A stretch of DNA of 60,083 nt, counting the filler, from Dugesia japonica (taxonomy: Eukaryota), in assembly GCA_001938525.1 (NCBI GenBank). It is 4 parts of 4 records of this genome, joined end to end, with 100 filler letters (N's around TTAATTAATTAA, not from the genome) between each part and the next. Parts side by side here need not be neighbours in the genome. Positions count along the whole stretch, not along the records: positions 1 to 25,744 come from MQRL01544292.1; 3 more parts are not named here. One strand, written 5' to 3'. This document shows positions 8,401 through 50,908 of this stretch, piece by piece. The position numbers were made by a program, and so were the translations under genes. Under the pieces are notes generated by a model. The model saw only the letters and a list, made by a program, of their open reading frames with translations, had not been told where the DNA came from and searched no databases. Every line of letters starts with the position of its first letter. Position 1 is the first letter of the stretch.

Positions 8401-11044
8401 AACGTATTTTCAAATGATTGAAATTTTTTGTAAAGAAATTGTTTTCACTATTTATTTTCTTGTCAAATCTATTTATCTAGTAACATCTAATTGTTAATTT
8501 GTAGTTTATTATCAAATAATACTAAAATTCAATGAAGAAATTTTTATTTGTTGAATGCTCATATTGCATATTAACAAAAGATTTCCAGTACCGTGATGGT
8601 TAATTTCTTTATTATCGGTATTTCCAATATTCAAGATAAGCGTAATATATTTATGCAATATAAAGTTCTGATTAAAATAAGAAAAACAAAATATTTTTGA
8701 AAAATTAATTTGATATAAATTGAAAAAAAATGAACGAAACCAAAAACAAAAAATATGACGTGAAAAATAAAAAACCATTTAAATATTATTTTTGTCCCAG
8801 AAATAGTATGAATTATTCAAGTCATTCATCTACCGAAATTTTGTTAATAATAACTTTATTGCTGAAAAAACTGTATTCTTTAACACTGTTGGGTTGCACA
8901 ATTTTTAAATAACATTCAATTATATTTATATACCTGTCATTGTAAAAGTTTTTCCTTGTATAGTTAAATTTTTTTCCGATAACGTTTAGAAGCTCTTACT
9001 TTGATTTAATTTATTTGTTGACANTGTTTTAATTGAGTCTGACTTTTTCCTTAATTTTTGCTGAAAAACTTATCTTAATGATATTTACACTTTCTCTTCA
9101 TTGGTAATGATTTCTGAATTAGTCCATTCATCAAATAAGAAACTTAACTTTTGATTTTCGTTGTTTTAAAATATTCAGTTTTGTTGTAATTTTGTCTTAT
9201 TTTCACCATTATATTTCCTAAATAGCGGTTTCTTGGATTATTCGAAACTCCACTGGAAGATAGTTTCAATCTTATATAAATGGATTTGCTTATTATATCA
9301 AATTATCTCCCATCTCGACAAACTAATCGAGATAATATTACTTGTAAAGAATTTGCGGTTTTGGAATTAAAATAGTGGGGTAGACGCTAAATCATTTATT
9401 AAATGGGATTTAATGCTACCAATATTTATTTTTAAAAAAATTAAAATTTTCTTCGTATAATAACAATTTCGATTGTTTTATCTATTTGCAATATTTACTG
9501 TTACGAAAAAAATAATTCTTGAACCTTTGATAAAATTACCAGTCAAACTGAGTATGCACAAAAAATAATAATTACAATAATTAAAAAAATGGTATTAAAT
9601 AATTTACTATAATTTAACAACTTAACTTAATAAAAACTTTACAAAATAATTAATTTAACACTAATTTGAATTACACGATAAAAAATTTCCTTCTTAAAAA
9701 TTTTTTTAAACAGCCCACAAAATAAAATTGAAATAAAACCCAAACCAAAACAAAATCGTTTTAATTTCAAAATCTATTTAAAAATTCATCGCGTAATAAA
9801 ATTATTGCATAGTCCATTATTGAATTTTTCGATTTTTTAGAGCTGTAAAAGTAAACTAGATGACAGTTTTTAGATAAAGCTATATTGAATATTTCATTTC
9901 ACAATACTGGTTAATTTTTTGTAAAATAATTTTATTGGAGTGTCTTCTTTAATAAAGAATAATTTTTGCACATTTAATACATTTGCTTTCATGTTTGTTT
10001 TTTCACGAAAATAATTCCACACATTTCATTAGTATGGTTTTGAAATTTTGAAATTTTATCAATAATTTCTTTAATAAATTTTAAAGATTTCACAATGTTA
10101 GAATATAAAGTCAAATGAAGATCTTGACAGTTTTTTTTTGAAAGCTATTTAAAAAATTAGACTTGCGAATCAATATACTTAGAATGTTGGTATATGATAT
10201 TAAACACATTATTTTTAAATTTACACGTTTTCATAGAATTTAAATAATATATAATACAGAATTTAAATAATATAAAATTAATATTTTTTAATGAAAACTG
10301 AAACACAGAACAAAATGTACATATTTAAAAAATTTACTATATTGATTTAGCTTAAATGACATTACTCAAATAACACATTTAAATTTTTTAAATTTACAAT
10401 TTATAAAAGTTCAAAGCTAAACCAACACCATAAGCTAAGAGAAAATAAAATATTATTAAATAAATTTTTTGCTCGACAACTCTTGGTGTGGCATAAAATT
10501 TCAATTTGATAAATTTATAAGTCAATTCCGAAATACCTGTTTTCTTTGTTTAGGTAATACGGATAATAAATAATTGCACTGTGGATACAATAGCTTGTCC
10601 ATATCAAAATTTGCATTGATTTTCATGTTCCAACTTAATACGTGATAGAAATTTATTTATCAACTTGATATTATTTTTTCTCAGTAATTACTGGTATTAC
10701 TAGTTTTATTATGATCGGTAATAGTTCAGTATAAAAATAAAGCAAGAAAATATCTTAGGACGTATCTATTCACCACTTTTATGTTCCTTTAATCTAGTGG
10801 GGCGTATTTCTATTTGTTAACTTAGTTCTATCCTTATATCCTATAGTTTTTTTTACTTAAATAAATTATATTATTTTATTTTTATTTATTATTTTATTTT
10901 TATTTTATTTTTATTTTATTTTTATTTATTTTATTTTAATTACCAAAGAAATTCTGTTGAATCCGGTAGCGTCTCCTGGATCAATGTTGCGACAACCGGG
11001 GTGCTTGATGTGTAATTGTGTTAATTTAAAAGATGGTTGAAATA

Positions 11045-11420
11045 AATACTTAGTTCGGTATTTAAACTCAACAAAGTGATATTATGGTTCGTATTTGATA
11101 CTATTAACAAAAATGAATAATTTGTCTATGATTTTACGAGTGTTAATTTTATCCCTGTATATGTGTAGATACAATACTATATAATCTATATTTTACTAAA
11201 AACGTATAGATAGGGTAATATATTGTCTTAATTGCCTTATATAAATAAATAATCAAACACCTTTTAAATAGCCTTTATTTTTTGTATATAATACAATTTA
11301 ACGATGTCGTTTTAAATCCTTATTAGCTTTATTTTAATTTATCAGAGTACAGCTTCCCTGAGAGGTCATTGTCTCTGTAAATAAAAAAGTCTGTCTCAAC
11401 TAAAAATGCAGCCTGTTTAA
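11045..11420. repeat. Dispersed ~370-bp repeat, copy 2
   Basis: Diverged direct copy of 5090-5460. Confidence 0.7.
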
Positions 11421-11839
11421 ATACTATATTTAATAAACAGCTTCTACCTACTTAAGAAAATCAATTATTCTTTTAAACAAACTAAACAATTATTTTTTAC
11501 AAAATAAATTATTTTTTTACATTGTTTTTCCCAAAATAAAAATCAATCGGGTTTTGTTCAAGATCACTTATTATATTCTCAGTTAATTACAATAAAAATT
11601 AATCACTGTTTTTTCAAGATTACTTATTATATTTTCAGTCAATCAATCCTTTAAGAGAAAAATCAATTATTGACATTACACTATGCATTCAATTTAATTA
11701 ATAAAATAAATAATATTGAATACAAATAGACTTATTGCTACATAAAATAAAATAATATAAAATGTTTAGATAACAATGTTCAGATTAAAAATGTAATGTA
11801 ACGATAACGAATTAAAATGTCTAGATCAAATTTATATCT

Positions 11840-12930
11840 GCATACCTAAAAACCACAAGCATTTAAGGTACCTCTGTACCATGCCCCTCTTTTTCCTGGG
11901 TCCAGCGTTTAATTTGCAGTATCGCGTCTTATACTGATGTTAATCACATGGACAATTTGTTCATTTAATATTTGACTTTATAATTACACCGTGATTCTAC
12001 TTTATCGAACACAATTCAATGAACATCCATTAACGTTTATTTATATATTTACAGTTTTCTTTTTCATCGACTACCCTGCGTCCAGGTCAACAGTGTAGTT
12101 ATGCTCCTTGAATCCTCTGGCACGAGTCTATAGTACAGCCATAGTGTTCTTAAGGTGGCGAACATAAAGATCTTATAACTGACTTAACCCTGATCACTTC
12201 TTAAGAATAAAAAGAAATTGTTTCAGTTCTACGAAAACGAGATAATCATTCACATAAAATATTTCGATATTTGAATGGTAAGTTCGTGGTAATTCGACTA
12301 CCTTTTATTTACGACACGACTTATTGATAACAAACTATAATTAATGAAATAATTGTCTAGTGGAGATGTTGCTGGAAATAAATTTACTTTAAAACTTAAG
12401 TATTCCAACGTTTTATTACTAATTAATCTAACATGAGACAAAAAAATAGAAAAAAATAATAACACGATCAGGACACTCGGTAGATGTATGAAAAGTAATG
12501 ATTTTACGGGGATAATGTTAAACACAAAAAAATATTTTCTTTTCCAATAGTTTCTTTTTCCACAAATTGATAGATAGACTTGGTGATAAATATAATGATA
12601 ATTTCGTTTTAAGATGTCGTTAATAATTACAATAAAACAAAACAAAATTGGTTATAAGTCTGACCATTTTTTTCTTTGCAAAGAAGCTTTATTCCTCGTT
12701 TGCACCACAACTTCGGACGATTCATTAGTCCACCAACCATTATCTGTTATTGGTAAACCGTATCATCTGATTGGGTGACACTTACCATTAATCGATGTGC
12801 TTCTCTTCATTTTCTGTCTGGTGAGATGTTTCACGCCCACCAAGTCCGATGTACCCAATTTTTCAGTCAGTCACCTCGTATGACTTCTGAATAATCGGAT
12901 AGTTGCTGTGGAAAGTCCTTGTCTGAATTA
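11840..12930 (-). pseudogene. Fragments of the uncharacterised repeated family (copy B)
   Basis: 11845-11935 aligns with 46170-46260; 12869-12922 aligns with 4112-4165. Confidence 0.45.
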
Positions 12931-13226
12931 GGTTGAGGAAGTTGTTTTCGTTGTTCATTTTAGATTTTATTACCCTATTCAGACAAGGCACGATGACTGG
13001 ACCAGAATTAATTAACTTCATAATAATATCCAACGCTAATTAACGTTACAATAATAAATAAAACGGGTCGTAGAAACCCTTCAAATACAATATTATATTA
13101 TTATATTTTATTTTATTATTTAACTATTCATTTGCTTCTTGTACATATAATTTTCATTTCTGTGTCCCTAAATTAGGGTTTCTTATGGCCGATTTTTATT
13201 TTTTTCGATATTTTTATAATAATTCC

Positions 13227-13227
<1 letters not shown>

Positions 13228-13294
<67 letters not shown>
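13228..13294. repeat. (TAA)n microsatellite running into an assembly gap
   Basis: Perfect TAA run. Confidence 0.95.
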
Positions 13295-14480
13295 NNNNNN
13301 NNNNNNNNNNNNNNNNNNNNNNNNNNNNNNNNNNNNNNNNNNNNNNNNNNNNNNNNNNNNNNNNNNNNNNNNNNNNNNNNNNNNNNNNNNNNNNNNNNNN
13401 NNNNNNNNNNNNNNNNNNNNNNNNNNNNNCTTTTTCCTTTATTATTATTCTTTTTTGATAATCTATACACTTTCATTTTCCTTTCTTTTCTTCAGTTTAC
13501 TTTTTTGTTTTGATGTGTTCTAGCCCAACACTCCTATAAACTTGAATAATTGTCATATAAGTCTTATTAATTAGATCTAAATATAAAATATTTATAAGTA
13601 ACTTTCTTATTTCAAAAACCTTGTCGAACAAATAATTTCAATACGAATAAATAATCCAAACTCAAAAATTACTAGTGATTTTTAAATTATAGTAATTTTC
13701 GTTCTAAATAGTTCCTATTTAATTTTATACAGCACCATCCTCAAATTTTTTCAAATTTGTGGGCCTAGGTGCTCCTCACTAAGATTAAGACAGAAGATTA
13801 GTTGATTTTAAAACTCTACAATTTAATAATAACAATCTAAACCACCGAATATTATTGCAAAGTCAGATTTAAAATTATCACAATAATAAAATTAAAATAA
13901 AAATAATTTTATCACGTTATTTTTATCACAATTATTTTTTAAACTTTTATTTACAAACCAATAATAAAAAATTTATCATCAATGATAAATTATTTTTTCC
14001 TTTCAAAATCTAGTATTCTATTGAATAAGAAAGTGATCATAAAATTTCATATTTCTAACAATCTTTTAATCTTCAAGAGAGTTAGACAAATTTTATGGCA
14101 TCAATTGATTTGTTTATGTTGCAAACTATGCTAATTACGGTATTTTACAAAATATATAAATCTGTTAGAAAACTGTTTAAGAACCATAATATTTATTGAC
14201 GAAATCTAAAAAAGAATAATAAATATATATTTAACTATTATTTGAGCAATCAATCTCAATCAGCAAACAAATGTTTACAGTCAGATATTGATTGTACAAC
14301 ATATCGTTTTAATGATTAGTTAATAATTATTTATCCTTGTATTCACCTCTCTTTAAAGACTCCTAACTATATTTATCATAACTGTTTTACAATTTTCAAA
14401 TTAAATGTGATAACTCCTGTCATGTTTCTTTCTAATTATTATTCCTATCTTTAATTATTATTATATCTAATTAGTAGTGT

Positions 14481-14852
14481 GGCCACTTGTGAATTTTTTT
14501 TTACATAGAAGTATCACAGAATTTTTAGAAATTGTATAGATGTCACTAAATATTTTATAAAATTGCATAGAAGTCAATAATTTTTTTTATGAAATTGCAT
14601 AGAATTCACAAAATATTTTATGAAATTTCATAGAAGTCGATAAAGTTTTCAAAATCCTATGTAAAACAATGGGAAAATAATTAAAAAAAAGTGTATAGAA
14701 GTCATAAAATAAGTTTATGAAATTTCATAGAACTCGCTAAATATTTTTTGAAATTGCATAGAAGTCACTAAATATTTTATGAAATTTCATAGAAGTCGAT
14801 AAATATTTTATAAGATTGCATAGAAGTTATAAAAAAACTTTCACAAGTGGCC
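14481..14852. mobile_element. MITE-like element with internal ~30-bp tandem repeats
   Basis: Inverted ends GGCCACTTGTGAA / TTCACAAGTGGCC enclose about 10 copies of AAATT(G/T)CATAGAAGTCA..AAATATTTT. Confidence 0.65.
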
Positions 14853-14889
14853 CAGAGTGGATGCTTCCCACTACTCTAATTATTTTATC

Positions 14890-16010
14890 TATATCTTTAT
14901 TAGCAGCAGTATTTTTGACCAAAACTTTGTCTCCAATTTTAGAATGTTTTTTTGTAATTCCATAATATTATGACTAATTTCATCTTGATCAATCCTATTT
15001 TTTACTGTATTTCCATGTTTCTCTTAAATTTTCACGAATATTCCAATCTCGTGAAATTTCTTTTCAAAACCAATTTCCACTGGGCTTTATTTGATATGTA
15101 GAATTTGTCATAAATTCTACTTCTAGGAGTATATCTGTCCAATATTTATGAATATAATCTCTTATAGTTAGAAATCGCCTTTCGATTTGTCCATTACTAG
15201 AATGATGATACGGGCTTGAAAATTTTAATTCTATTTCATGTTTTTCTATCAATTCTTTAACCAAACTCGATTCAAATTATCTTCCTCTATCACATAAAAA
15301 AAATTTTAGGTTCCCAAAATTTCAAAATCTATTGATTTTTTAATGTATTTTCTACAGTTTTTTAATTTGATCAATAACTTATATTAATGGGATATGATTG
15401 CTAAATTAATTTATAATACCCATTATATATTTTATTTCATTTTATTGTTTTTAAACGGTTCACAAAATTCAATATATAATTTGAAATGTATCTGTAGGCA
15501 ACATTTTAATTATGTCTTCCTTTATTTTTGAAGTTGAAGGTTTCCTTTTTTGTCAGTCTTATTATCAGTTTTCCATATAAAATTGTCTCGAAAAATATTC
15601 GTGAGCCTATTTTGATCCGTCATGACATAATAATTCATTAGTATAATTTATAAATTTCACTAATTTCTTTTGGGATCCAAGTTTAATTTTGAATTGTTTA
15701 AACAATATTTTCAATTAATTTAAATTATAGATTTTTCAAAGTTTAAGTTGTCTTTAATAACATCAATTTAATTACATCCTTCTTGCCATTTACAACCATC
15801 ATTTTTTTTAACATTAGTGCTAATGTTAGTTTTATTTTTCCAGATTTCTGTTCTTTATGTGAAGTCTAGTATTGAACTCAGGTTTCACAATCTATTCTTG
15901 AGAGAATCAGCATTCAGGTATTCTTCACTTTTAATATCCAAACTGCTAAGATGGTTGATTGAAGCCTGAAATTATGGTGTTTTTGGTCTTCAGCATAAAC
16001 GCTTTTGCTT
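14890..16010 (-). mobile_element. Ty3/Gypsy pol remnant (RNase H-integrase)
   Basis: ELKFSSPYHHSSNGQIERRFLTIRDY is the integrase SPYHP.SNG..ER motif; flanks are degenerate. Confidence 0.8.
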
Positions 16011-16326
16011 TATGAAAAATTTAGGAAATTTCACAATAACATCGATCAATTTGAAAAAATATTATGTTTGATTAAATTTAGTTGATTTTTAATTTAATAT
16101 ACTTTTATATATTGTTTTTTAATAAAATTTATTTGTAATTTATGATTAAAAATCTGGGAAAATTGGTTTGATTTTTTTCTTTAAAATTCTTTAGAATTGA
16201 TCTAGTATTCGTAATAATAAATTTATAACAAATTTTATTATATTTATTAGATAATTTTGTTATTTATTGTATTGTATTAGCCTTTTGTGATTTACAATAC
16301 AATTTAATTTATTATTTATTTATTTA

Positions 16327-16767
16327 TTTATTTTTAATTTGTCATCTTTTCGATATAAATGTGTTATTTTATTATAAATGTGTATTTTTTTCAAAAAAAT
16401 NNNNNNNNNNNNNNNNNNNNNNNNNNNNNNNNNNNNNNNNNNNNNNNNNNATCTTTTCGATATAAATGTGTTATTTTATTATAAATGTGTATTTTTTTCA
16501 AAAAAATAACTAATTATTTCCTCTAATAAAAAAATAATTAAAAATGAGGAAAAATATTCCTCATAATAAAGGAAACATTTTTTTAATAAAAAGAGGAAGA
16601 AATCCTCTTTTTTAATTTAGTTATATTCCTTTTAATGAGGATAATAAATTCCTCTTTTATTTTTTTTTATTATTTAAGAGGAAATAATTAGTTATTTTTT
16701 TGAAAAAAATACACATTTATAATAAAATAACACATTTATATCGAAAAGATGACAAATTAAAAATAAA
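16327..16767. repeat. Long terminal palindrome / imperfect hairpin of the pPolB element
   Basis: 16451-16524 is the exact reverse complement of 16677-16750 (74 bp). The interior pairs imperfectly around GAGGA-agaaa-TCCTC (centre ~16600). 16344-16400 duplicates the left arm across an N gap. Confidence 0.9.
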
Positions 16768-17049
16768 ACACTTACATAAAAACACTTTTCTTTTAACAAT
16801 TAAAAGCAGTTAATAATAATTATGTGTAACTTTAATTAATGTTTTGTACATAAAAAGATAAATTACTAATAAAATTATTCTTTAAAACAATAAGATATTA
16901 ACATTAAAAAATAAAATTCTTAATAAGATGTTTGGGTAATATTTTAAGCAACTAAATCATAAAAAGTTAATAAATTAATAAATTAATCTTTACATTTGAG
17001 TTACTATTTTTAATAAAAAATTATTGATTAATTCAATAATAATTGGAAA

Positions 17050-17770
17050 AGTCTAATTATTCTTCACATTTAAGTTGTTAATTAAAATAATTATTCTTTA
17101 GATTATAGATTTAAATAAAAGTTATTGAAATAATCTAATTATTCTTCACATTTTAATAATTTTTCTTAGATCAAAGATTAAATAAAAATTAATGAATTAA
17201 TCTAATTATTCTTTAATTAAAGATTAAAAATAAAAAATTAATGAATTAATCTAATTATTCTTCACATTTAGATGTAATTAAAGATTAAAATAATTATTCT
17301 TTAAATTAAAGATAATAATAAAAATTCTTCACATTTTAGATTTTAATAATTATTCTTTTAATTAAAGATTTTAATAAAAATTCTTCACATTAGATTTTAA
17401 TAATTATTCTTCACATTTAGATTAATCTAATTATTCTTCACATTTAGATTAAAATAATTATTCTTTAAATTAAAGATAATAATAAAAATTCTTCACATTT
17501 AGATTTTAATAATTATTCTTTTAATTAAAGATTTTAATAAAAATTCTTCACATTTAGATTTTAATAATTATTCTTTTAATTAAAGATTTTAATAAAAATT
17601 CTTCACATTTAGATTTAAATAATTATTCTTTAAATTATAGATTTTAATAAAAATTACTGAATTAATCTAATTATTCTTCACATTTAGATTAAAATAATTA
17701 TTCTTTAAATTAAAGATNATAATAAAAATTCTTCACATTTAGATTAAAATAATTATTCTTTAAATTAAAG
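17050..17770. repeat. Subterminal tandem repeat array (core TTCTTCACATTTAGATT and AATAATTATTCTTTAAATTAAAGAT)
   Basis: More than a dozen shuffled copies of two or three short modules, followed by a (TAA) microsatellite. Confidence 0.85.
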
Positions 17771-18189
17771 ATAATAATAAATAATAATAATAAATAATAA
17801 ATAATAAATAATAATAAATAATAATAATAAATAATAAGATAATAATAAATAATAATACCACATTCACAATAAGTATGTGGTATCACCAAGTTATATTTTA
17901 AAAAACTAACTTCAATTTTAATATAATAATTTGGATTAAACTCGTTTATTGTTTCGTTGTTTAAAAAGTTAGCATATATTATTGTTAATATCTTTTTGAT
18001 TATATAATTTATTTTCATAATTAGCTTCAAAAGATGTATCATAAATATATCTATTGTCACATTTAACTTTTAAACAAATAAGACGGCAACAAAAAAATTA
18101 AAAAACTATATTATGGTAACTTTATTTTTAAAATATCTTCTGTTGCATTCGGTATTTTCTTTTTAACAATTAACATTTTAGAGTGTCTC

Positions 18190-18549
18190 TCATAATTTTT
18201 TATTTTTTAAAGTGTCTTTTAAAAATTTATATTCATATTCAACAATTTTAAATAAAATGTAAAAAAATANTATAAAAATTAATAAATCTATAATGTTACT
18301 TTGAGATATTAATTTTATATTATGTTCAGATTTTAATTCTATTATTTTATCTTTCATTATTTCAACAGTCTTTTTTGCTAGTAAGTATGGGTAATAAATA
18401 TATTTAATTATTTGTTGTTGTTCAGCTGGTGAAGCATTTAATGCTAAATCATATTTTGTTTGTAAATCATTTTTAAAATCATTATCTTTAAGTATTTCTT
18501 TTAGAATTTTTTCTAGCATTTTCTTTAACAAATAATTCTTCATAACCAT
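18190..18549 (-). CDS. Hypothetical helical protein of the pPolB element
   Basis: 119-aa ORF co-oriented with pPolB; start preceded by TATAAAAAATG; contains one N. Confidence 0.5.
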   Translation of the reverse strand: MVMKNYLLKKMLEKILKEILKDNDFKNDLQTKYDLALNASPAEQQQIIKYIYYPYLLAKKTVEIMKDKIIELKSEHNIKLISQSNIIDLLIFIXFFYILFKIVEYEYKFLKDTLKNKKL

Positions 18550-18995
18550 TTTTTATATTTTCATCAATATTAGTTTCATTCTTTATATTGCCGGCTATTA
18601 TAGTTGAATTAAGTACTCTTGTTCTAGTTTTTGGTGCAGAATTAATAATTGCATTTCTTTTTTCTGTTAATGTTGGTTTTTTTAATTTCTCTTGTATTAA
18701 TTCAAAATTATTAATTTTTACATTAAAACAGTAATCTCCAAATTGATTTTTAATGAAAGTATTTGTTTTTTCATCATAAAAATATTTTACTCTTTTATAA
18801 ATTTTTCTTGGTGGTTTTATATTTAAGTCTCTAAATGCTTTATTTATTTTGTTGATTGAAACATTTAATTCTTCTGCAATAATGTTATCTTTTAATGTTG
18901 GATTTTTTTTTAATTTCATTGAATTTTGTTATTAAATCAATCTTTTCTTGTTTAATAAATGTGAGTGGATTGAAATAATCTGCTGAATCTGCCAT
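18488..18995 (-). CDS. Putative HTH DNA-binding protein (frameshift in an A9 run near 18905)
   Basis: KKNPTLKDNIIAEELNVSINKINKAFRDL is HTH-like. The upstream ATG at 18995 (MADSADYFNPLTF...) joins the ORF if one A is removed from the homopolymer. Start preceded by TATATAAAATG. Confidence 0.6.
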
Positions 18996-19030
18996 TTTAT
19001 ATAGAAAATATTTAATATTTTTTATTTATT

Positions 19031-22000
19031 TCATGTTTCACAGTTGAGTGTTTTATTTATTTTATCTAATCTTAAATGCCATGTGTTGCACAAAGAACAG
19101 AAATATTGATTTCCATGTGGCCATGTTCTAGTTCCATTGTCTTCTATTATTCTTTTATCACTATAACCTGTTAAAGCAATTTTCTTTTGAGAAATTAATT
19201 CAATTTGATGCAATGTTGATTTTAAAGAATAATTTGTGCCGTGTATTATTTTCTTGGGATCTTTTAACACAGAATCAAATTCTTGCATTCCAATTTTATT
19301 GAAACTTTGTACACCTTTATGTTTTTTATTAAAATTAATCTCACTTCCTTTATTATTATTTGTGTATTCATATGCATAAGATTTAGGTTTTATAAAATCA
19401 CATTTAAGTATTTCAGAATTAGGCATTTCATCTTTCATCTGAAATAGATTATCTCCAGTTAAAGAATTTAATTTTTCCAGGTTATCATTTCCGGTGATCT
19501 CAACGAATACGGAATCTGTGTTTTTTATTATCAATGGAAATCCACAATTGAATGTTCCATCTTCGGTTTCAATGTCATATACATCTTCTGTGTTTTGTCT
19601 TAAAAATTTAATACTTTGAGGATTAGTAGTTATTTCAGATTTTGTTTCTTGTAGTTTGAAGTCAGCTGTAATAATTAAATTCATTCCTAAAATTGTTCCT
19701 AGATAATATGCTTTAGACAACGATATTTTATCTGTAATTGTTTTATTAAAAATGTTAGATTTAAATTTATTATTTAAAGATATTAATGTTTTAAATTTAT
19801 TATGTAATAATTTAGTATCCAATGTTAGATTCATAGGTTTAATTTCTTTATTGTTTATATCTAATAATGAATGGTCTTCTGTAACATCGACAATGCCCAT
19901 GTGTGTTCTTATTCTATAAATCTTTTTATTTGTAGTGTGTTTAATTACTTTTTTCAATGGAACCCAGTTACTTTTAGTCCAAATTTCATAATTTTCTGGA
20001 TAAGAATAATACTTTACCTGGTCGCATAAAGCAGTGTTCTTTATATAATTTCCGGAGATCTCTGAAATCTTTTTAATAATAATATTTCTTCCTTTTCTTA
20101 GTAACACTGGAGTATCAGATGTAACACTGTCAGAGTAATGAATTTTATAATTTTCATTTCCAATATTTGGTTCTAATTGGTTATATACAAAATTGTACAT
20201 TACTTCTTTAGCATATTCTAGGATAGTGAAACCTAGATATGGAAATTTGTTATATTTTAAATTTGTTTTCGACATGTGCATTACTCCTGTGTGACATAAT
20301 ATTTCATCATTTAACGAAAAACATTTACTATCTATATAGCTAGGTTTACTTGCAAATTTTCGGAAATCTTTGTCAGTTCCGACAATTTCTATGCTACATC
20401 GATTTCTAATATTTTCTAGAGTTTTCCCGTAGAATGAATTATTCATCAATTTAAAGAAGTCAACTCCAAATTCATCTTTATTTCTTTTTGATATAGTTCT
20501 TTGGGTTATATTAAATAGAATATAATCTTTTAGCCATGGTGAAGTCGGTAGTTCATATTTAGAATGTATAGTTTTTAGTTTGATTCCTAATTGTAGATAA
20601 AGATCTAATGTTGAATCGAGAATTATATAATTTTTCTTATCGAGTTGATTCATTGTAAGTTTAATATTTTTATCTGTTAATTTTCTATTAAAACTTTTTT
20701 GATAATTTGTTAGCATATCATTTGTAATAAGTATTCTATCAGGTGCTAATGGGAAATATTTAGTTTTATCATGTAGTTCTTTTGGGTAAACAAGATCAAC
20801 TTCATAGAGATAATTAATTGTTTCTGTTGAGATTTCATATTCTAGATCTTTGGATTTAATGAATTCACCTGTTGGTAATGGTTTTGTCATGCACGATGCA
20901 TAAAGTGAATTTGCATCTAGATATTTTATATGTCTATTTTCCATTATATTATTAACATTAATTTCTTGACCTGAATTCATCATTTTAATGAGATCTTCAA
21001 AATCTGATTTATTTAATTCTCTAGTATCTGGATTTTTAATAATATTATGATTGAATACTTGACGTTCACCTTCTTCTCCTGAATAACCGCCGCGTACTCC
21101 GCGTTCGAATTTTAAGAAAATATCATAAGTTTCTGGTTTTGCAAATTTTAATTTTTGTCTTGTAAATCTCATACCAGCATTCCATGTTAATCCTGGTGAT
21201 GTATAACAATAACATGGATCTATTTTATAATTATTTAAACATAGTATTCTGAAGTTTTCAATATATTCCATTAAAATTAAAACATCTAGTTTCATATAAT
21301 GCAACATGTAATTCCAGAGATTAATGTGCGAGGTGCTTAGTTCAGTTTTAAATGCTTCATATTCTTCGTTGGATATTCCTTTTTGTTTTAGCGTGCTAAA
21401 GAAATCTTCTTTCTCTGGTATTTTCTCGGATTTTAATAATTGCATGACTTCTTGAATATTGTTATCTTTTACATAATCATATGGAAATAATGCTTTTTGA
21501 TTTTTATTTAATGTTTTTCCCATTTTCTCTATAGTAGTTGGACATAATCTGTAAGAATCAAGGAATCTAATATTGTTAAATTGAAATGAGATATATTGAT
21601 CATCTGAATGTGGAATTATTTTCTTAATACTTTTTGNNNNNNNNNNNNNNNNNNNNNNNNNNNNNNNNNNNNNNNNNNNNNNNNNNTTTGGATTTTTATT
21701 TAATAATTCTATGAAAAATAAATGATTGTCATATCCCATTGCATTATGAAAGTAAAATGGAATAAATAGATTCTTGATACTTTTATCTTGTAGATTACAA
21801 TATGAATGTGCATAGCCTCAGGGTTCACCGTTAAAATGATTGTGATCTATAACAAGATTTTCTGTTATTTCTTGATCACAGTATCTACATAATTGTTCAG
21901 TATGCTCTGGGATAGGACCAATAAATGAAGAATGTAACATATCAAATTTAACATTTTTTAATTGTCTGTTTATTTTTTCGAGAAAGTTAATAAATTCATA

Positions 22001-23332
22001 TACAACATTTTCACCTGAAAATTCAAAATATTCATCTTTAATTAGATCTTGATATTCTGATTTTAAATATATTCCAAGGCTAATCGGTTTTTGTATATTT
22101 AAATTATTTGTGTACGATTCGAAATCGCCATATAAAACAAATGGCATTTTATTAATAAAATAATTATTTTTATATTCAAAATATTCTTCATTTGGAAATT
22201 TAACTTCAGCTGGTTTGTGTAGTATACATTCTTGTTGGTGATTAAATAAAACATGTACACTTGAATATTGATTCAAGCAACCAAGACAAAGACAATTATT
22301 TTTTTTAACATTAAATAAAGTTTCAACATTTCTAACTAATGAATAATGATTGTTATATATCAAAAGATTACATTTATTTTCTTCTGGTTCAGGTTTTATT
22401 TCATAGTGCGAAATATGAAGTGCTGTAACTCTATTATCTAACTCGAAAACATTTATTTTTAAATTGTTTAATTTTTCTAATTTCTTGACATCTTCAATTG
22501 TAGATGGAAAATTAATTCCTTTTATATTTAATTCATTTAAATGTGGAATATAATTATTTACTCTTCTTGCGTTATTTCCATATTTATATTTATGTGCGAG
22601 AACTGAATACAGTAAACATTTATTATCTTTATTTTCAATATTAATAATTCCATATTTATTTTTATATTCATCTGGTAATACGCAATAAGTTGCTCCGGCT
22701 GTCGAATGATATATTTCAAGTTTAAGAACAAAATCCAATATGTAATCAAAATTCCAGTTAGATTCATTTCTCTCTGCGTCCTCCATAAAGTTCTGTACTT
22801 CTTCTAACATTTCATTTACTTGTTGCTTATATGTATCGAGCACATAAACTATTCTATTTTTAGTATATGAATAAAATGTTCTAAGTTTTCCTTCTTTACT
22901 ATATTGTGAATTAACTCCTATTCGCATTTTTAACACGTTGGTTGCTTTAAAAAATTCAGATACCATATTTTTAAATTCATAACTGGCTGGATAAATTGTT
23001 CTATATTCATATTTCGCAATAAATCTTTTCATTTCTAATTTACTATCTTCTAATATTCTAATATGGTAATCAGGATATTTTTCTTGTGTAAATATTTCAT
23101 AGATTGGTAAACCAATTTTTGTTTCTATTGGGATTTTTTCTTTTTTTCCACATGTACTTTTTGATTGATGAATATTTAATGATTCTAAAGTTTTAAATCT
23201 TCTTTTACATCCTGTGCATAATACATAATCACTCAATGAAATAAAAACACATTTTTTAAATCTAATGTGCGTATTTAATGCTCCTTTTGATTTAAATAAA
23301 CCATTGCAATTTTCGCATGTGAATACACTCAT
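19031..23332 (-). CDS. polB: Protein-primed family B DNA polymerase (Polinton/adintovirus-type) with N-terminal Zn fingers, TP-like region, OTU-like protease and EndoVII; intein-containing; one in-frame TGA at 21818-21820
   Basis: ExoI YGDFES, ExoII HNAMGYD, ExoIII YMKLDV, motif A YLDANSLY, motif B KLMNNSFYGK, motif C YSD|TDS, KPKSY, KHKGV, DKR. The 504-aa and 902-aa ORFs are in frame and are bridged by GEP*GYAHSYCNLQ. Confidence 0.93.
19520..20128 (-). mobile_element. Mini-intein (203 aa) in pPolB motif C
   Basis: Block A SVTSDTPVLL, block B VDVTEDHSLL (TxxH), block F VYDIETEDGTFNCG, block G IIKN followed by +1 Thr. Removal restores YSDTDSVFV. Confidence 0.93.
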
Positions 23333-24289
23333 TTTCTATAGTAATAATTTAATCAAAGTTATTTATTTTCTTAATTTAAAATTTATATATATGTTGCACT
23401 TTTTTATCATATTATTATGTAACATTTATATAAATTTTTAAGCAATTAATGCAAATTTTTGTAGCACTATTGCTGAGTGAATATTCCATTTTTATTTAAC
23501 TTTTTATTTTTTTTTAAAAAAATTGTTACAAAAAATATGTTACCGTACTGGACCTGAGGGAATATACCTATTTATATCACTACTTATAATTAGTAAAATG
23601 GTTTGAAATTTTTTAAATTTGAATGTGAAATTTAATTAATTAAGTTCATTAACCAATATAGATTGGTTAAAATAATTTTAATTGGGAAAAATATGCTTCG
23701 ACACCATTATGTGTATTAGTTAAATTTAAAATCTCCATAAATTGTTTATTGATTATTACAAGTCTTTTCTTAAAAAATAAAAATATGNNNNNNNNNNNNN
23801 NNNNNNNNNNNNNNNNNNNNNNNNNNNNNNNNNNNNNNNNNNNNNNNNNNNNNNNNNNNNNNNNNNNNNNNNNNNNNNNNNNNNNNNNNNNNNNNNNNNN
23901 NNNNNATTTAACACCATGTAAAATTTTAACTTTAATTTAAAATATCTTTGTTTTACATATATATTTATTTATTTTTCTAACTTTATAATTTTTAAAATTT
24001 TATATTTGAAAAATTTCAAAAAAAAAAACTTAATATTAAATATAAAAATTAAAAAATCTCAAACATCCAAAATTCATGAATCGATACTCACAATGTGTAT
24101 GTAAAGGTTTCCGTCTTTCACGTATATATGACATGATTTATAAAATTAAGATATATGCATGCCAGATTTTTTGATTAGTTAAGTCATTATTGATTAATAA
24201 CTGACTTATAAATTAAAAATTGACTCATAATTATTACTTTACATATGGAAGTTTAGAAGATGCCTATTCATCATTGCATGCTTTTTATT

Positions 24290-25959: not shown

Positions 25960-28900
25960 TTTATGTGTTATAAAGAAGTCCAAATAGAATTTCTAAATTA
26001 TGGTGATGATAGGGACTCGAATAAATAATATCAAAATTAAATCTTTCTGACAAATTTCTTAATAAATGTGGTTCAAAACCTTTACCTCTATCTATATGAA
26101 TTGTTTTAGGGGTCCCATATTTTAAAATCCATTCGGTTAAAAGTCATTTCGTAAGAGTTTTATCATCTTGTGATGTAACAGCCTTTAAAATCGTATATTT
26201 ACTAAATTGATCAATTATAGCAAAAATGTATTTCTTTCCAGTTAATGTAGTCTGAAATGGTCCACAAAAATCAATAAAAATGCTTTGAAATGTTTCATGT
26301 ACATTATTTGTAACAATAATTTCTTTTGTTTTGCATGTCAATGTTTTACGATTTTGACAAGTCACAACTTGTTATAATGTCTGTGATAGTTTTATTTATA
26401 TTTGTCAAATCATATTATGCAAAGATATAATTAATAAGTTTATTAATCCCAACATGGCACAGCTCTTTAAGTTTTTCTAAAACAAACTCCCCCTTTCTTT
26501 TTCCGTGATATATATTTTATTTTTCTGACTAAAAACTATGTTTTTATCCATATAAAATTTACTTTCTTGTTTTTCTTTGATTCTTGATATTATTTAATCA
26601 ATTTCTTTACATTTGCTTTGCCATTTATATTCATATTTTACATCTTCAATTGCCAAAATCTTTGTCTTTATTCTTCCTGTTTTTGGATCTTGGTGGGCCA
26701 TCTGACATTGTTTGCAATCTTCTACATTTAACCTTGATAGGGCATCAGCGTTATTGTGTGATTCACCTTTACGATATTCTAGAATCATATTCAAACTACT
26801 TAAAAAATTTATGCAGTTTTGAAATTGAGCTGTTATTGGTTTTTTGTAGTCATCATAAAAGTTATTTTATTATGGTCTGTCCTTAAAATGAATTTCTTTC
26901 CATATAAGTAATGTTTAAAATGTTGAACAAAGTGAAAAAGTGATAACAAATCGTCCCTAGTTATGCAGTATCCAATTTCATGTTCATTCATGATTTTTGA
27001 TCCATATGCAATGATGACTTCTTTTTGATATTCATCTTTTTGTGATAAAACTATGCTTATTGAATCAAAACTTGCATCTGTATCTAAAATATAAGTTTTC
27101 TGAAAAATTGGATGTCTTAATATTGGTGTCTTTGTGAGACGTTTTTTTAAACTTTTAAACGCTTCTTCACATTTTTCAGTCTAAACTAATTTAACTTCTT
27201 TATTCCCAATTAATTCTTCCAATGGTCTGGCAATTTTGGAATAATCTTTTATGAATTTACGATAATAATTTGTTAGACCTAAAAACCTACGAAGATGTTT
27301 AATGCATCGAGGTTTTACAAAATTTTCTATCGCCTCTATCTTTGAATTATCAGTTTTAATCCCTTCCTTATTTACAATATAACCTAAGAACTTTAATTTG
27401 GATGCTAAACAATTGCATTTATCTGGATTTATTTTTAGCCCCGATTTCTTACTTCTTAAAAATATTTTTTCAATCCTTTGTTTATGTTCATTTAAATTTT
27501 TTGAAAATACTAATATATCATCGAGATAAACCAGAGTTTCTTTCCACATCATGTCTCCAATAATAATTGACATCAATTCTTGGAATGTCGATGAAGCAAC
27601 AGCAATACCAAATGACATTCGGTTAAAACAATATTGTCCCATTTTAGTCAAAAATACCGTCTTAAACTTACTAACTTCTTCCCACTCCACCCGATAGTAT
27701 GCATTTCCTAATTTAATGGATGAAAAATATTGTGCCCCATATAACGAATCAAGCATCTCCTCAATATTTGGAATTCGAAAAGGTGGTCTAACAGTGTATT
27801 TATTTAATAATCAGAAATTTAAGCACATTCTTATTTCATTTGATTCCTTTTTTTAATTCATACATTTGGAGAGTTCTATGGGGATTCACATTTTTTTATA
27901 ATACTATTTTCTTCTAAATTATTTATAATTTCTACTATTTTTTCTTCGCAGTGCATCGACTGCCTTCTAGCTATCATTAAAATCGGTTTGCAATCGGTTT
28001 CTATTTTATGTTTTAAAATGTCTGTTTTACCAATATCCCATTTATTATTCATAAAAATTTCAATATATCTGAGAATAACTATTATCGTCATTTAATTAAA
28101 ATTTTTTATTAATTGTTCGCTACTATTCATATATATATTATTTGTTGAAAATTTAGCTTGTAAATTTAAAACGCTGGGATTTATATTATCTATTTCTATT
28201 ATTTTTATTTGTAAAGAATTTAAAATATCGATTCCTATAGTTATTAGGGGATAAATTTCTTCAGTAATGAAGCTTTTATTAGTCCACTTTTTGCAATTAA
28301 ATTCAATATTTATATCTACCTTATCTATAATATTTAGGGCACTTCCATTTGCACATAATACTTGCTTGTCATTAACATTTTTGTTATTAAATTTAATATT
28401 TTTAATTTCCTTAGCTATAGTTTTACTCATTACGCTTATTTTCGCCCCAGTATAAAATAATGCATTAAAATAATTTCCATTTAGTTTAATATTATTAACA
28501 ACATTAAAAAATTCAAGCATACATATATCAGTCAATCTATTTTCATCATTCATGTTTTTAAATATACATTCAATCATTGAATCATTTTCAATCACACCAA
28601 TACTATTATTAAAATTATTCAAACAATCATCATCACACTCAAACATACTAGTCCTCATATTATTAATATCACATCTTACATGTAATTTATGGCTCCTATC
28701 ATTTTCCCGTTGACTGAAGCCTTGGCATTTCCCGAATCATCATTTTATCATCTATCTCGTTTGTATCGTCATCATATAGAGCAACAACTTGATTTCTTTT
28801 ATTTGTAGGATAGTATCTGTCATCTCCATGGTATTTGTCATTATCGTAATCTTTGACTTGGTGTCTAATATTCATTTAGTTTTCTGTGTCTTTTCGATGG

Positions 28901-30270: not shown

Positions 30271-30849
30271 TCCTGAAGAAGACAATTGCCGAAAAGTTGA
30301 ATTTCTATACACACAAATTTTATTTTTGATCGAAGCCTTTTCTTTATTTTAATGAAATCTCAAACGCGATCAATCGTTAATTCCAACAATTATTCTCACA
30401 ATAATTGTATTTATAAAACTTATCATTGATTTATTCAATGGGATGAAAATTTACAAAATGTTCAGTAAATTCTTAATACAAACTTTGACATTACAGATTT
30501 TAAATAAATCTGCGTAAAATCAATTTTTATTGGATTTTAATTGTAATATAAAATTAAATGAACATTTTCTCAGTTAAGTGCTGCAAAGCATTATGATAAA
30601 TCTATTTTGTAAAATAGTTTGAAGTTTTCAATAGATAAACTCGTTTTCAACAACAAACAATTTTTAATTTCAAAAAGTCAAAATTGCTGTTCTTTTATTT
30701 TAGATTTCAGATATTAAAGAAAATTCCAAAAATAAAATAAAAAGTCTTTATTCAACGACTAATTTATTTCAATTAATATAATTACAATTATTGTGAGAAT
30801 AATTGTTGGACTTAACCATTGATCGCATTTGAGATTTCATTAAAATAAA
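30270..30849. repeat. Inverted pLTR-like repeat pair next to the Penelope 5' end, with a hammerhead-like core
   Basis: 30347-30409 is inverted relative to 30783-30849; CTGAAGA-agacaattgcc-GAAA at 30273. Confidence 0.55.
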
Positions 30850-34079: not shown

Positions 34080-34300
34080 GCAATTATTGCGAGAATAATT
34101 GTTGGACATAACCATTGATAGTTTTACGGAATTCATTTAAAATAAAAGCTTCGATTAAATTTTTTTTATTGATATTTGATAACAATTCGATAATTCGACC
34201 TTGTCTTTTTGACTTTTTTTCCTGACGAAGACAAGGTCGAATTATCGAATTATTATCAAATATCAATAAAAAAAATTTAATCGAAGCTTTTATTTTAAAT
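34080..34300. repeat. Palindromic pLTR-like repeat with hammerhead-like core
   Basis: ~73-bp arms (34135-34208 / 34228-34300). CTGACGA-AGAC-AAG-GTC-GAA at 34222. Same family as 30320-30410, 30783-30849 and 59975-60045. Confidence 0.65.
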
Positions 34301-34953
34301 ATATTTCGTATGTTGTAATTAATTAAAGATTTTGTTGAAAAGGATGTATGACGAAACATGTATTTATGTTAAAGTCATTATTTTCATGCTGAATCCATTA
34401 TTTTTGATGAAAACTTTCTATATACTATACTGCATATTTTCCATGATAAAATCTTTACTTTTCATGATTAAACTATTATTTTTCAATTAAAACATAATAA
34501 AATATTTTATAAAAGCATTATAAAACCTTAACATTTGATCACTAAAAACTCTATGAAAATACTATAAATCTCTAAAAAATCTATATTATATTATACAAAC
34601 TCTAGAAAATTCATTAAAATTATATAAAGATCAAAAACAATAGAATTAAAGTCTATTAAGAGACTCCCGGAGAATATTAATTACTCAGATAAAAGAACCA
34701 TAACATGTTTTAATTCAAAAGTCCAAAATGTATTGGATATGTAATGAAAGAATCTTTCAAAATGAGAATGGATATTGTTGTAAACAATTAAATACTATCT
34801 ATTTAAATAAAATAAATTTAGAAAGAAGTCTTTCGTTTTTTATAGCATTGATAGAATCACAAACTACGATGAGAATAAAAATTCTACAATCATTTCCATC
34901 AATAGTTATAGATGATTTACTTGATATTATTGTAAGTGTTATTCGCGGTAATG

Positions 34954-39003: not shown

Positions 39004-39256
39004 ACAGCAAACTCTGCAATAAAATAAAATCAAAAATAAAATCAAATCAAAATCAAGGGGGGTTAAAAAGAACAGCGACAGCAAAGACAAAAATAAAACT
39101 AATGAACAAACCAGCGCATTGCTAAAAACCATCGACAGTAGTGATGTTGACGTAGCTGTGAACGCATTCTATAGTTATGCGCACTCCGTTCGATGTGTTA
39201 AACCCAAAGCCCTAAACTTTAAAATCAGCGAGGGATAATCCAGCAAGCGTACTGAA

Positions 39257-41848
39257 ATGGATTTATGCTTAAGGGATCGGTACTATCATTCACAGAAAGC
39301 AGTCTTTGAGCTAATCACTGATGAGGTATCAGCTGACTGCTTTCCTTCACAAACTGATCTTGAGGCTTACTTCCAATCGAAATCAGAAGTTGATCCGACT
39401 ACAAAATGGGATTTATGCCCCCCCATAAAATCAGGCGAGAATTCCTTTGAATTTTCCTGTCCCCAACCTGCTAGTATCAGAGCCATCTTATTTGGGCTGT
39501 CCAACTCGGCACCTGGTAATAACAACATTACATACCAGGACCTTAAAGCGACTGACCCAAAATGTATTCTGATACACAGGATTTTCAAGAAAATTCTATT
39601 GACAGGGACAACTCCGAATAGCTGGCGTGCCTACTCAACCCTGATGATACCAAAACCTAGAAAAGCTGGCTCCTACCTTCTAGTCTCATCTTGGAGGCCA
39701 ATAGCCTTACTTGACTGTCTGTACAAGCTCTTCATGGCATGTCTTGCGTCTGAACTCTCAAGATGGACACAAAACTCTGGATTATTACATAATCTCCAGA
39801 AGAGCGCTGGACAGTCTGAGGGCTGCTCAGAACACAATTTTTTGCTCCTTTGTCTCCTCAATGAGCAGAACCGATATAATCAGTTCACTCTGCATATCGC
39901 GTTTCTGGACATAGCTGACGCCTTTGGTAGCATCCCCATTTAACACATTCTAGATATTCTAATGAAAATGGGGGTCACCGAAAAGGCAATTATGCTAATC
40001 AGAGCGCTGTACTCTGATTGCTGCAGCTATTATATTTGCAATGGGATATCTACTAGTCCTTTTGCAAATAAAAGGGAAGTTAGACAGGGTTGTCCTTTAT
40101 CTATGTTGCTGTTTAACATCGGTATTAATCCCATCATAAATGAGATCTCAAAAACTCAGGGTGCCGGTGTTAAATGTGCTGGACATCCCATATCTTGCTT
40201 GGCATATGCTGATGACTTAGCACTTGTTGCTTCCTCCAAGGCCAACCTGCAAGATATGGTGTATGTAGCTGTCAAAATTGTGAAATGTTCCTCTTTAGAT
40301 TTTAGGCCGAGTAAGTGCGCCTATTTAATATGTCCCGTAAATGGTGAACTTGCCCAAATTGTCGTAAAGGAGGAAATTGTTCCCAAACTTATCAACAAGG
40401 AATCCTACAGATATCTGGGTGTTGACTTTAATCAGGAACATTTCCAAACCCCAGTGGAGATGTTTGAGAAATCTGTCAGGGACCTGGAAAAAATAACCAC
40501 TTCGGTTCTTCATCCCTGGCAGAAGATCCACGCTTATAAGACATTTATCCATTACCGTTTCACATTTGCCTTTAGAAATTTCAATATTCCTATAGGCAAA
40601 TTCTCTTGTAGTGCTCAAACGGAGAATGGAATTGTCCATAGGAAAAAGGGGATTGACAAATCAGTTCGCCATAACATCAGAAAGATTCTTTCAGTCCCAG
40701 AGTCATTCCATCTGACTACCTGTACGGTTCCCAAATAATAGGGAGGGTCGGACTAACATCAGCGAGGGACGAATACTCTGTACAATCTCTCGTGCAAGCA
40801 CTCAAGATGCTTGAATGTCCTGACGAGATTGTACGAGATGTGGCAAGCAATGACCTAATTCATGCTGCCACTAAACACCTTAAACTTCATAAACTGTGTT
40901 CACTCGACGAAGCACTGGATTGGCTCTCTGTGGATACCACCAAACTCCAATTGAAGTGTTGGTGGTCCAAGGCCCAAGGTGCAATAGTCTACCTGCAGCA
41001 GACTCTGAACTTACAAACGCAATGAGCTTGGAGTCTGTTTGCAGGTCATCGACTGCGCCTATGAAGACAATTATCTTATTTCCTTCAAGAGCAATGACAA
41101 ACTCCTCCATGACTTACTCGAGTGGACACACACGAGAAAGTGGAACGCTCTGGTAAAAACTGGTGCGATGTCAACTGCAGTTGGAGAATCCCGACTCTCA
41201 ACGAAGCCGTTATATGATGGCTCTATCAGACTCGAAAGCTGGCGATTTATTCACAGGGTGAGAACTAACACTCTTCCTGTCGGTTATAATCTAGGGAAGA
41301 AAGAACCTTGTAGAAAATGCCCATACTAGCAAGAAACTCAGGTACATGTCTTGTGTCACTGCCCATCTTTAATGGGTCAGCGCATTAGACAACACAATGA
41401 TGTGCTTGAGTCCCTGGTCGAGTTTGTTAGAGCAAATACAAATTTCAAAGTCATCATCGATCAGACCTGTGACCTTGTTAACAGGACTGATCGTGTTGAC
41501 CTGCAGTTGATAAATAGCAATGAAAAGCGCATAATCCTACTGGATGTGAAAATCCCATACGACACATCCAGTAACATAAAATTAGCGAGGGAGACGAATA
41601 TAAATAAATACACCCCACTCAAGGACAACATTCTAAAGAACTTACCGAACTGGAATGTCCTCTTGGAGACGATCTCAGTTGGGTGCCTGGAATCCTGGTG
41701 TATTGAGAATGAACCTGTTCTCAAAACAGTTGGTCTCCGCGTCAACATTATTAAAAAATTTGCGCTCCTCTCGATCAGGAAATGTATAGCCTGGTCGAGC
41801 AGACACTGGGCTTTCCATAGCGGAAGAGCTGGCAGCATGGACAACTAG
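39257..41848 (+). pseudogene. Reverse transcriptase + CCHC + restriction-like endonuclease of the LINE
   Basis: Consecutive ORF fragments separated by stops/frameshifts, carrying canonical motifs. Confidence 0.92.
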
Positions 41849-48563: not shown

Positions 48564-48968
48564 AGGTGGTTAGGTAGAGACACGATCGAAAATGACGCAA
48601 TCACCGTTCACGCTTCTTTATGTAAAAAACAATAATTGTGAATTTTCACACCTTTAAGTAAACAATTGATTTTTTTATTGTTTTTTTCATGTAAATAGTG
48701 AACTTTCTCAATTTAAATATTTCTTTCATACCTTAATATAAATAATGAATTTTCGCTCCTGAGATCTATATTTTTCACACCTAATCTGTTTTATGCATGG
48801 TTTAATGCGCCTTACAATATATAAAGATTGTTACCATAAAATGTTATTTTTATGTGTGATCTTTCACACATTAATGTAAATACTGAACGTTCACACATAT
48901 TTTGTTCTGAGGTAAAACTAGTGATGAGCCTCAATAATTACATATACTTTTATTTGTGAACCTTCATG
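48564..48968 (+). repeat. Left inverted repeat (DNA transposon end-like) flanking the Polinton module
   Basis: 48700-48968 is a diverged reverse complement of 54813-55081. Confidence 0.8.
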
Positions 48969-49276
48969 GTAATGTAACTGTCATCTTTATCACCCAAAAT
49001 CTTTTCCATCACGGTGATATGCATCGTACACGTAATTTAAATGTTCATTATTTGGTTCTATTAAAAAATCCACGCGATCAAACTGTGATTGATTATGTTT
49101 CTCGTCAAGCATTTCCTCACAATAAAGGATTTTTATCTAATGTATTTCGCGATGTTACTACAAAACCACATGAATATTTATTTATTGATTTCATGCAACT
49201 ATGTCCTGATGATAAACGAGTAAAAACCGATATTTTCAATTTGGAAGAAATAACAGTTTACAAACCATTGGTATAA
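48965..49276 (+). pseudogene. Polinton A32-like packaging ATPase, 5'-truncated
   Basis: VIFITQNLF..RT.NLNVHYLVLLKNPRD...SRQAFP...YLFIDF. Confidence 0.85.
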
Positions 49277-49305
49277 AAAAATTAGTACTTTATAAAAAAA
49301 AAGAA

Positions 49306-49815
49306 ATGAATCGATTTAAAAATGTTGTCATAAAGCAAAAGGATGGTGGTTGTGGTGGTAGTTGTGGTGGTGGTGGTAATGGTGGTGGTAATTTGAGAAT
49401 ATTTTCAGGAAGTATTCCATACTTTAAGGCAATTTTAAGGGTTTTATCAGATTCTCGATGGAAAATTATGCACTCTTTGCCGGAATTTGTAATGAATGAT
49501 TTCATTAGTGTTTTGCAACAAATTGTTTTGGGTCGAGTAAATTTTGGTCATAAACGTGGAAAATATCGATTGAAAAAGTATCAAAAAGCTCTTGAAGATA
49601 TGGCAAAAGCAATAAATTTGGTAGCAAAGAAACGAATACTTCAAAGACATTTTCCTTTTACGAAATAAAACAAGAAGAGTAACAAACAAGTTTATAATGG
49701 ATTTGTTTGGGCTGCACTTTAACCGATTCTAAATTTGTTGGGTAAAGCGGCTGCAACAAATGCAGTTGGTGCTGCTACAGGATATGCTACAAAAAAAATT
49801 ATTGATTCAATATAA
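49306..49815 (+). pseudogene. Polinton small basic protein with amphipathic C-terminus
   Basis: Reading through the stops in frame gives ...NGFVWAAL*PILNLLGKAAATNAVGAATGYATKKII. Confidence 0.5.
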
Positions 49816-49989
49816 ACAATTTAGAGTCTTTTTGCTATTGCAATATAAATGTATGTTGCACCTTCTAATATTTCAGACATTTCATTAAGTATTCGTTGTT
49901 GTATTTCAGGCGATCAAGTTGATGGAACAACTATGGATCTGGTTGGATACGCCGGTATTTTAAAGCGTGCATTTGCTGCAAATGTTTCG

Positions 49990-50880: not shown

Positions 50881-50908
50881 AGTGGATTCAAGCATTTCAA
50901 ATCCAATA

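Follow-up and report, generated by a model that had tools for sequence, protein, structure and literature searches.

The locus and its genes

The window, 60,083 nt of DNA from Dugesia japonica in four joined parts, opens with a stretch (1-25744, contig C544292 of an 854-Mb assembly in 648,594 contigs) that carries a large palindrome and, running on from it, an element of 6,985 nt (~7 kb). The element is a Maverick/Polinton derivative that encodes pPolB and two small ORFs. Its features are as follows.

16327..16400, no strand: outer portion of the left, mirrored arm, which closes the contig on the left side of a gap; borders on host DNA at about 16327, within an A/T tract
16451..16524, no strand: left arm as first described from the sequence
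16525..16676, no strand: asymmetric core with three GAGGA..TCCTC modules, in orientation F1 in the window copy
16593-16607, inside the core: central hairpin GAGGA-AGAAA-TCCTC
16677..16767, no strand: right arm of 91 nt, which runs on into the element; Logan contigs span into it
17086..17857: sub-terminal AT-rich tandem repeats with 28/55/67-nt periods
18190..18552, minus strand: orf2b, a small ORF without an assigned role, common to short elements
18488..19007, minus strand: orf2, a predicted three-helix (HTH-like) protein, with a frame break near 18900 in the window copy
19031..23335, minus strand: pPolB, with C2H2 fingers, a TP-like domain, a vOTU-like stretch, an EndoVII-like motif and a polymerase with an intein-like insert
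22703..23119, minus strand: terminal-protein-like domain within pPolB, with approximate limits carried over from the L056 model
23580..23584, minus strand: sharp Polinton-type end (CTACT on the plus strand, AGTAG on the minus strand), about 250 nt upstream of pol

The same order, from core through repeats, orf2b and orf2 to pol, is found in all six core-bearing contigs that reach coding DNA (L145 among them has an N gap in place of the core). This bears out the sequence-only reading that preceded our analysis, which held that the palindrome is tied to a pPolB element and is no chance duplication.

The polymerase gene matches PF03175 in a profile search (E 4.4e-20), and the window copy carries a stop at 21818-21820 and an N gap at 21637-21686. 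The 1429-aa ORF of a sister copy, L056, shows the C2H2 fingers, a weak EndoVII match and the intein-like insert by sequence search; the EndoVII matches (PF02945, E 5e-4 in L056 and 1e-4) both fall below the curated cut-off. We modelled the terminal-protein-like domain on L056, which is 85% identical to the window copy over the N-terminal part. Residues 76-212 are modelled with pLDDT mostly 82-92, and their best match is the Y-family little finger 4IR1 (Z 8.6, rmsd 2.4, 95 aligned), a Z barely over the tool's noise level of 7-8. Y-family polymerases fill the top five rows of this fold search, an invariant Ser lies before the last strand, and the whole N-terminal pPolB model matches adintovirus and MELD PolB. 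A match to the Y-family little finger is likewise reported for polinton terminal proteins in the available text of PMC11161782. Judging from the model, pPolB thus appears to retain a PRD1-like terminal-protein domain. As a query, the pPolB N-terminus retrieved three distant proteins and nothing else. In the vOTU-like stretch the Cys is invariant and the His is present in 14 of 15 rows (by eye), in a region that is modelled with pLDDT <50. The intein-like insert (19031-20100, in the C-terminal part of pol) matches NEQ068 intein structures, and many sister copies are without it, as seen from split tblastn matches.

The gene orf2 recurs in the full Mavericks of this genome, where it comes first at the far end. 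It has no Pfam match, and its best scores are 0.81 in the ESM Atlas and E 0.69 in Foldseek. The fold matches, all at E > 0.5, are mostly to HTH proteins, and the N-terminal three-helix part of the model is confident; we treat a predicted HTH protein as a lead. The ciliate genetic code gave nothing useful.

Queries from this genome found no integrase (rve), ATPase or capsid in stretch 1-25744 by tblastn. There is no reverse transcriptase among the element ORFs, for which PF03175 is the sole profile match, and no Rfam family, the hammerhead ribozyme included, matches 16200-18200 at E <= 1. Nor does the stretch hold a second copy of 23400-23600 that could be a TIR partner; the mirror duplex proposed below would itself possess TIRs. 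Full Mavericks are nevertheless present in this genome, with rve (E 2e-10), an A32 ATPase (1e-10) and a DJR capsid (3e-8); unlike the window element, the full element C635298 has rve, capsid and packaging ATPase. Further genes of the full Mavericks are ones that we take to be penton-like, fibre-like and membrane-lytic. AG-type ends mark Polintons, and AGTAG also stands at the pol side of L054, L056, L058 and L059.

The window holds other repeats. The right flank of the window copy (23574-24100) is a very high-copy repeat with a summed depth of 9,000-20,000, followed by a mariner-like remnant (by eye). Inverted repeats of 87-92% identity lie about 6.4 kb apart at 48696-48968 and 54812-55084; the ORF remnants inside look Polinton-like by eye, and those of 48696-55084 gave no matches to this genome's Maverick queries. 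More fold-back or MITE-like inverted repeats occur at 34125-34310, 30343-30849, 56297-56631 and 59840-60005, and, in the parts that follow the first, remnants of elements with RT, of LTR type (together with protease and RNase H) and of LINE type, at 26833-28736 and 39239-40738. Elsewhere in the genome, nested perfect inverted repeats (22, 40 and 24 nt) lie downstream of the genes of a capsid-type element (L052:2478-2759), like two Maverick-type ends back to back.

The palindrome and its predicted fold

The arms 16451-16524 and 16677-16750 pair with no mismatches around an asymmetric core of 152 nt, with GAGGA modules at 16546, 16593, 16637 and 16678 and TCCTC modules at 16519, 16558, 16603 and 16650. 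The pairing and the motif positions agree with the perfect 74-bp stem around a GAGGA/TCCTC core that had been described, and the arm can be extended. The 50-N gap at 16401-16450 is flanked by an identical 57 nt (16344-16400 equals 16451-16507), and 16694-16767 recurs, reverse-complemented and without a difference, at 16327-16400. Because of this identity and mirroring, the true arm is about 91 nt (16677-16767), and the figure of 74 bp marks a contig edge. Sequence left of 16327 has no match to any element locus compared, and so we take it as host flank.

Public contigs agree with the assembly on the element side, where the Logan contigs covering 16638-16855 and 16677-16983 show no differences from it and both cross the right arm unbroken. 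The mirrored stub of the window copy is absent from the Logan contig tables, in which 16291-16400 is masked, and with the same stretch masked there is no strand-changing joint among the matches listed for the Logan k-mer contigs of public runs. Since 91 nt are identical on both sides and the reads are short, the assembly may leave the orientation of the core in the window copy unfixed.

As DNA, the palindrome has a minimum free energy of -101.5 kcal/mol (z -19.7), which none of 200 shuffles equals, and the core alone reaches -27.4 kcal/mol (z -5.6). It had been proposed that the core can fold either as one long bulged hairpin or as a branched structure, and folding predicts both, a rod at -101.5 and a branched form at -99.8, a predicted gap of 1.7 kcal/mol in the window copy. 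The further idea that the core is switchable is not supported as a trait of the family. The predicted share of the branched form is 7-12% at 37 C in the window copy, 18-29% in L002 and 12-23% in L005, and in all four scored subfamily B copies with their own branch energy this form is 3.5-8 kcal/mol worse, with a share of about 0. Across the 10 complete cores (6 of 16 were excluded as incomplete or unparsed) the modules pair alike in rod and branched forms (92 and 94 of 100), and the pairs flanking the modules favour the rod, 71 vs 49 of 120.

A covariation analysis by RNAalifold on a 16-row alignment finds six pairs and no compensatory ones, because the two subfamilies are out of register. In L004 an apparent double change, TCCAC with GTGGA, favours the rod by eye, but the motif parser chose another register, and the case carries no weight. 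What is conserved across the two subfamilies, as far as sequence and predicted pairing go, is the set of GAGGA modules together with the bulged rod. The GAGGA modules may be protein sites.

Copies, mirrored DNA and an empty site

Three genome searches place the core at 19 loci, a count that leaves aside L009-L012 (arm only or low-complexity), L132, L135 and L138 (contig without core) and L122 and L145 (core an N gap); a tight core pattern matches nine loci, and its reversed control none. Relative to the arm and repeat side, the core lies in orientation F1 in 7 copies and F2 in 11, with one unassigned. The single-armed copies are the informative ones because there the assembler has no choice of core orientation, and the 12 copies that have no far arm, or one shorter than ~35 nt, divide 4:8 between F1 and F2 (p 0.39 against 1:1). 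A flip/flop arrangement, with both forms beside the retained arm, is thus supported across copies; it is seen between copies, not within one.

In all four copies checked the inner arms match each other, apart from one mismatch at the edge of the core in one of them; from copy to copy they differ by 3-22%. Other arm pairs have diverged, to 95% identity in L121 (94.8% over arms of 269 nt), 91% in L133 and 98% in L122, and so are no assembler echoes. The length of the far side varies from a cut inside the core through 10-35 nt, 91 nt (window) and about 220-250 nt (L122) to at least 269 nt (L121).

Mirrored element DNA is present at eight loci: L013, L112, L113, L129, L125, L121, C245424 and L055. 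In L013, L112, L113 and L129 the sequence passes abruptly from the core into mirrored orf2b/orf2; this mirrored piece, in L112 and L129, agrees at 99-100% identity with what is probably the second arm of that copy. In L125 the sequence passes from the core into mirrored pol (48 nt, 87.5% identical to a sister). Two of the eight are without a core, C245424, whose identical 1120-nt arms reach the pol end, and L055, whose end holds 77 nt mirroring its own pol; fold-backs therefore also arise elsewhere in the element.

Seven of the eight pol+orf2 elements form one clade (SH-aLRT 96) with branch lengths of 0.08-0.27 in a quick tree of 43 pol-core rows, and therefore the layout propagates; one copy (L042/L055) falls outside. 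The pol family is large, and 88 of 15,674 candidates were scored. None of the 648,594 pieces of the assembly holds a whole mirror element with two AGTAG ends. Outside this genome, we found no relatives with the pol N-terminus or in viral and metagenome contigs. The central-hairpin pattern has no match in viral contigs, and its four matches in metagenome contigs, none of which extends past about 40 nt, we read as chance. A third short layout exists at L057, L058, L059 and L061, with pol, a convergent ORF, a small ORF and tandem repeats to the contig end, and with the EndoVII motif kept. A search with the far end of this layout returned itself alone; that end may be another type of hairpin.

The window copy can be compared with its empty site. 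A contig from run X4 (605 nt, depth 9.5) covers 15931-16290 and 23584-23692, the empty allele, and it resumes at 23584, exactly the AGTAG end. In runs X1, X2 and X7 the left-flank contig carries 179 further nt off the window, consistent with the same empty allele, and the filled junction (to 23628) is covered by contigs of depth 5-6. The empty allele has 134 nt between its flanks; the window accounts for 36 of these, which leaves a loss of about 98 nt of host DNA at the hairpin; part of this could be A/T-tract polymorphism in the masked stretch. No TSD is seen at this one empty site, where the right-flank hexamer has no repeat at the left junction. Since there are both empty and filled alleles, and an exact boundary at 23584 against the ~98 nt lost, the insertion is polymorphic, sharp at AGTAG and ragged at the hairpin. 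We read the window copy as a stump, with a sharp end, a 91-nt stub and host DNA gone beside it. Over the core the contig depths add up to 17-32, where a single host allele gives about 9-13, and so an abundant free form is not seen.

A proposed fold-back mini-Maverick and its alternatives

The explanation that we favour, with a probability of roughly 0.6, is that the palindrome is the axis of a ~14-kb mirror duplex (2 x 6,985 nt) with AGTAG at each side, whose displaced strands would give ~7-kb clothespins. Each clothespin would have one predicted protein-capped end and one bulged hairpin. We read the palindrome as a symmetry axis rather than an end because several copies continue past the core into mirrored element DNA. 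Polintons measure 13-25 kb in the available text of PMC10748475, and twice 6,985 nt fits this range. Several observations weigh against this reading: no assembled piece has two AGTAG ends, depth over the core is low, two fold-backs are core-less, the empty site is without a TSD, the stub of the window copy is absent from the masked Logan tables while two contigs cross the arm unbroken, the L042/L055 copy falls outside the clade, and the searches found no relative in other genomes.

In such a cycle the terminal-protein domain of pPolB would prime at AGTAG and copy by strand displacement. The displaced strand, from the symmetry of the duplex, would be self-complementary and fold at the core, so that flip would come from one strand and flop from the other. 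Priming on a clothespin would then lead to copying round the hairpin and remake the duplex, so that no resolvase would be needed and the arms would stay identical within a lineage. The integrase of full Mavericks, and perhaps their capsid, would be supplied in trans and work on one AGTAG end or both. According to the accessible part of PMC7999016, chromosomes do not stably maintain long inverted repeats whose spacer is short, and for this reason one arm would be cut back, sometimes into host DNA. The outcome of this step is seen in the copies themselves, where deletions from or near the core leave stubs of 0-270 nt or mirrored genes; an integrated duplex or an integrated clothespin would either of them yield such stumps.

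An alternative places the fold-back at insertion. The mobile form would then be a one-ended duplex with a quasi-palindrome, and the mirror DNA would arise by fold-back priming during or after insertion, much as in the Penelope inverted stubs here. The raggedness of the mirror side, the microhomology-like A/T tract at the window junction, the two core-less fold-backs and the loss of host DNA at the site would all fit such a process. What makes us think it improbable is that it offers no simple reason for a whole asymmetric core of 110-150 nt to stand in both orientations beside an intact arm, single-armed copies included, nor for a bulged core conserved in two subfamilies, and that the element is without RT or any Rfam match. 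In a Penelope-type inverted stub an RT remnant or hammerhead would lie in the arms, whereas neither is found here and the linked gene is pPolB.

We rank lower, as rather unlikely, a cycle in which a cruciform forms at the duplex junction and is cut by the EndoVII/HNH domain of pPolB to leave flip and flop hairpin ends, which would give the same anatomy with an enzyme-made hairpin. The poxvirus enzyme A22 cuts cruciforms likewise. The PF02945 matches, under the curated cut-off as they are, point this way, and across pol loci L015-L081 the motif DHxH..G..RGYAH..CN is kept, where visible, in 5/5 pol+orf2 elements and 5/5 other short ones, and has degenerated in 16 of the 21 elements of capsid type. 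However, these counts are not independent, because the degeneration is essentially a single loss on the tree, and five capsid-type elements keep the motif. The AT-rich bulged hairpin beside tandem repeats recalls the vaccinia layout, as given in the available text of PMC8956199, but endonuclease inserts in pPolB are common and are read as homing-type insertions in what is accessible of PMC11161782 and PMC10748475, and a primed open end makes cutting unnecessary.

That fold-back chimeras or repeat collapse in assembly or library made the perfect arms and flipped the core is very improbable: the window palindrome does begin at a contig edge by a gap with a 57-nt overlap, several copies end inside the arm and the arms of C245424 are 100% identical, but three copies have arms that differ by 2-9%, both orientations occur among 12 single-armed copies, and core-to-interior contigs recur in independent runs, which refutes an artefact for the family, though it may still account for the perfect match, or for the core orientation, in the window copy.

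The fold-back mini-Maverick combines traits of several known systems. With Polintons/Mavericks, adintovirus-like ones included (PMC10748475, PMC11161782 and PMC8502044, in the text available), it shares pPolB with a TP-like domain and an endonuclease insert, the AGTAG end and orf2; it differs in being without integrase, ATPase, protease, capsid and, in the assembled stretch, a separate TIR pair, and in having a conserved hairpin axis and a mirrored body. With integrase, capsid and TSD absent it is no Polinton itself, yet it descends from Polintons and likely works with them. The pFOXC clothespin retroplasmids of Fusarium, in the accessible text of PMC3035579, have a hairpin at one end and a 5'-linked protein at the other, as would our element; they are mitochondrial, 1.9 kb long and use a reverse transcriptase, whereas the element encodes pPolB and is part of the nuclear genome of an animal. 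Poxvirus telomeres, as the available text of PMC8956199 describes them, are AT-rich, incompletely paired hairpins in two complementary forms with tandem repeats adjoining, and the predicted fold and repeats of the element are similar. Poxviruses have such hairpins at both ends and need a resolvase, whereas one end here is Polinton-type. The initial comparison to flip/flop viral hairpin telomeres therefore stands as to the two orientations beside the arm and fails as to a poxvirus-type telomere at both ends, the other being AGTAG. Snapback genomes of AAV, in the accessible part of PMC8235507, are likewise self-complementary sub-genomes with one terminus that replicate by way of head-to-head dimers and with helper functions, but they are by-products with variable turning points, whereas the element turns at a conserved core that stays fixed across a clade encoding its own polymerase.

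A deletion derivative of kalilo, a pPolB-type linear plasmid, reportedly forms hairpin and duplex DNA in a single mitochondrial mutant. Published accounts present Polintons as linear duplexes with an inverted end on either side, and what is known of their free forms is mostly inferred. The literature searched, with subscription papers, Repbase entries and supplements outside its scope, holds no hairpin-ended or fully palindromic Polinton, and the available text of PMC11296320, PMC6431247, PMC8502044 and PMC10748475 describes no such form.

More tentatively, and we think it possible rather than probable, the elements may be a lasting satellite clade of Mavericks, their free genome having a terminal protein at one end and a flip/flop hairpin at the other, replicating themselves with their own pPolB and both packaged and integrated by helper Mavericks, in which orf2 would read GAGGA and EndoVII could resolve the junction. 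If so, the clade would link protein-capped with hairpin-ended DNA virus genomes as a natural intermediate, and would be a polymerase-bearing, integrase-less Maverick satellite in an animal.

Overall, a family in which one end is replaced by a conserved flip/flop hairpin would preserve the record of a replication intermediate in the genome, and mirrored arms and a core that can invert are expected if strand displacement starts at a protein-primed end. Search filters that ask for TIRs plus a TSD overlook such elements. The family would offer a concrete case of a terminal-protein genome gaining a hairpin end, and in our own reading it may bear on the origin of hairpin-ended large DNA viruses.
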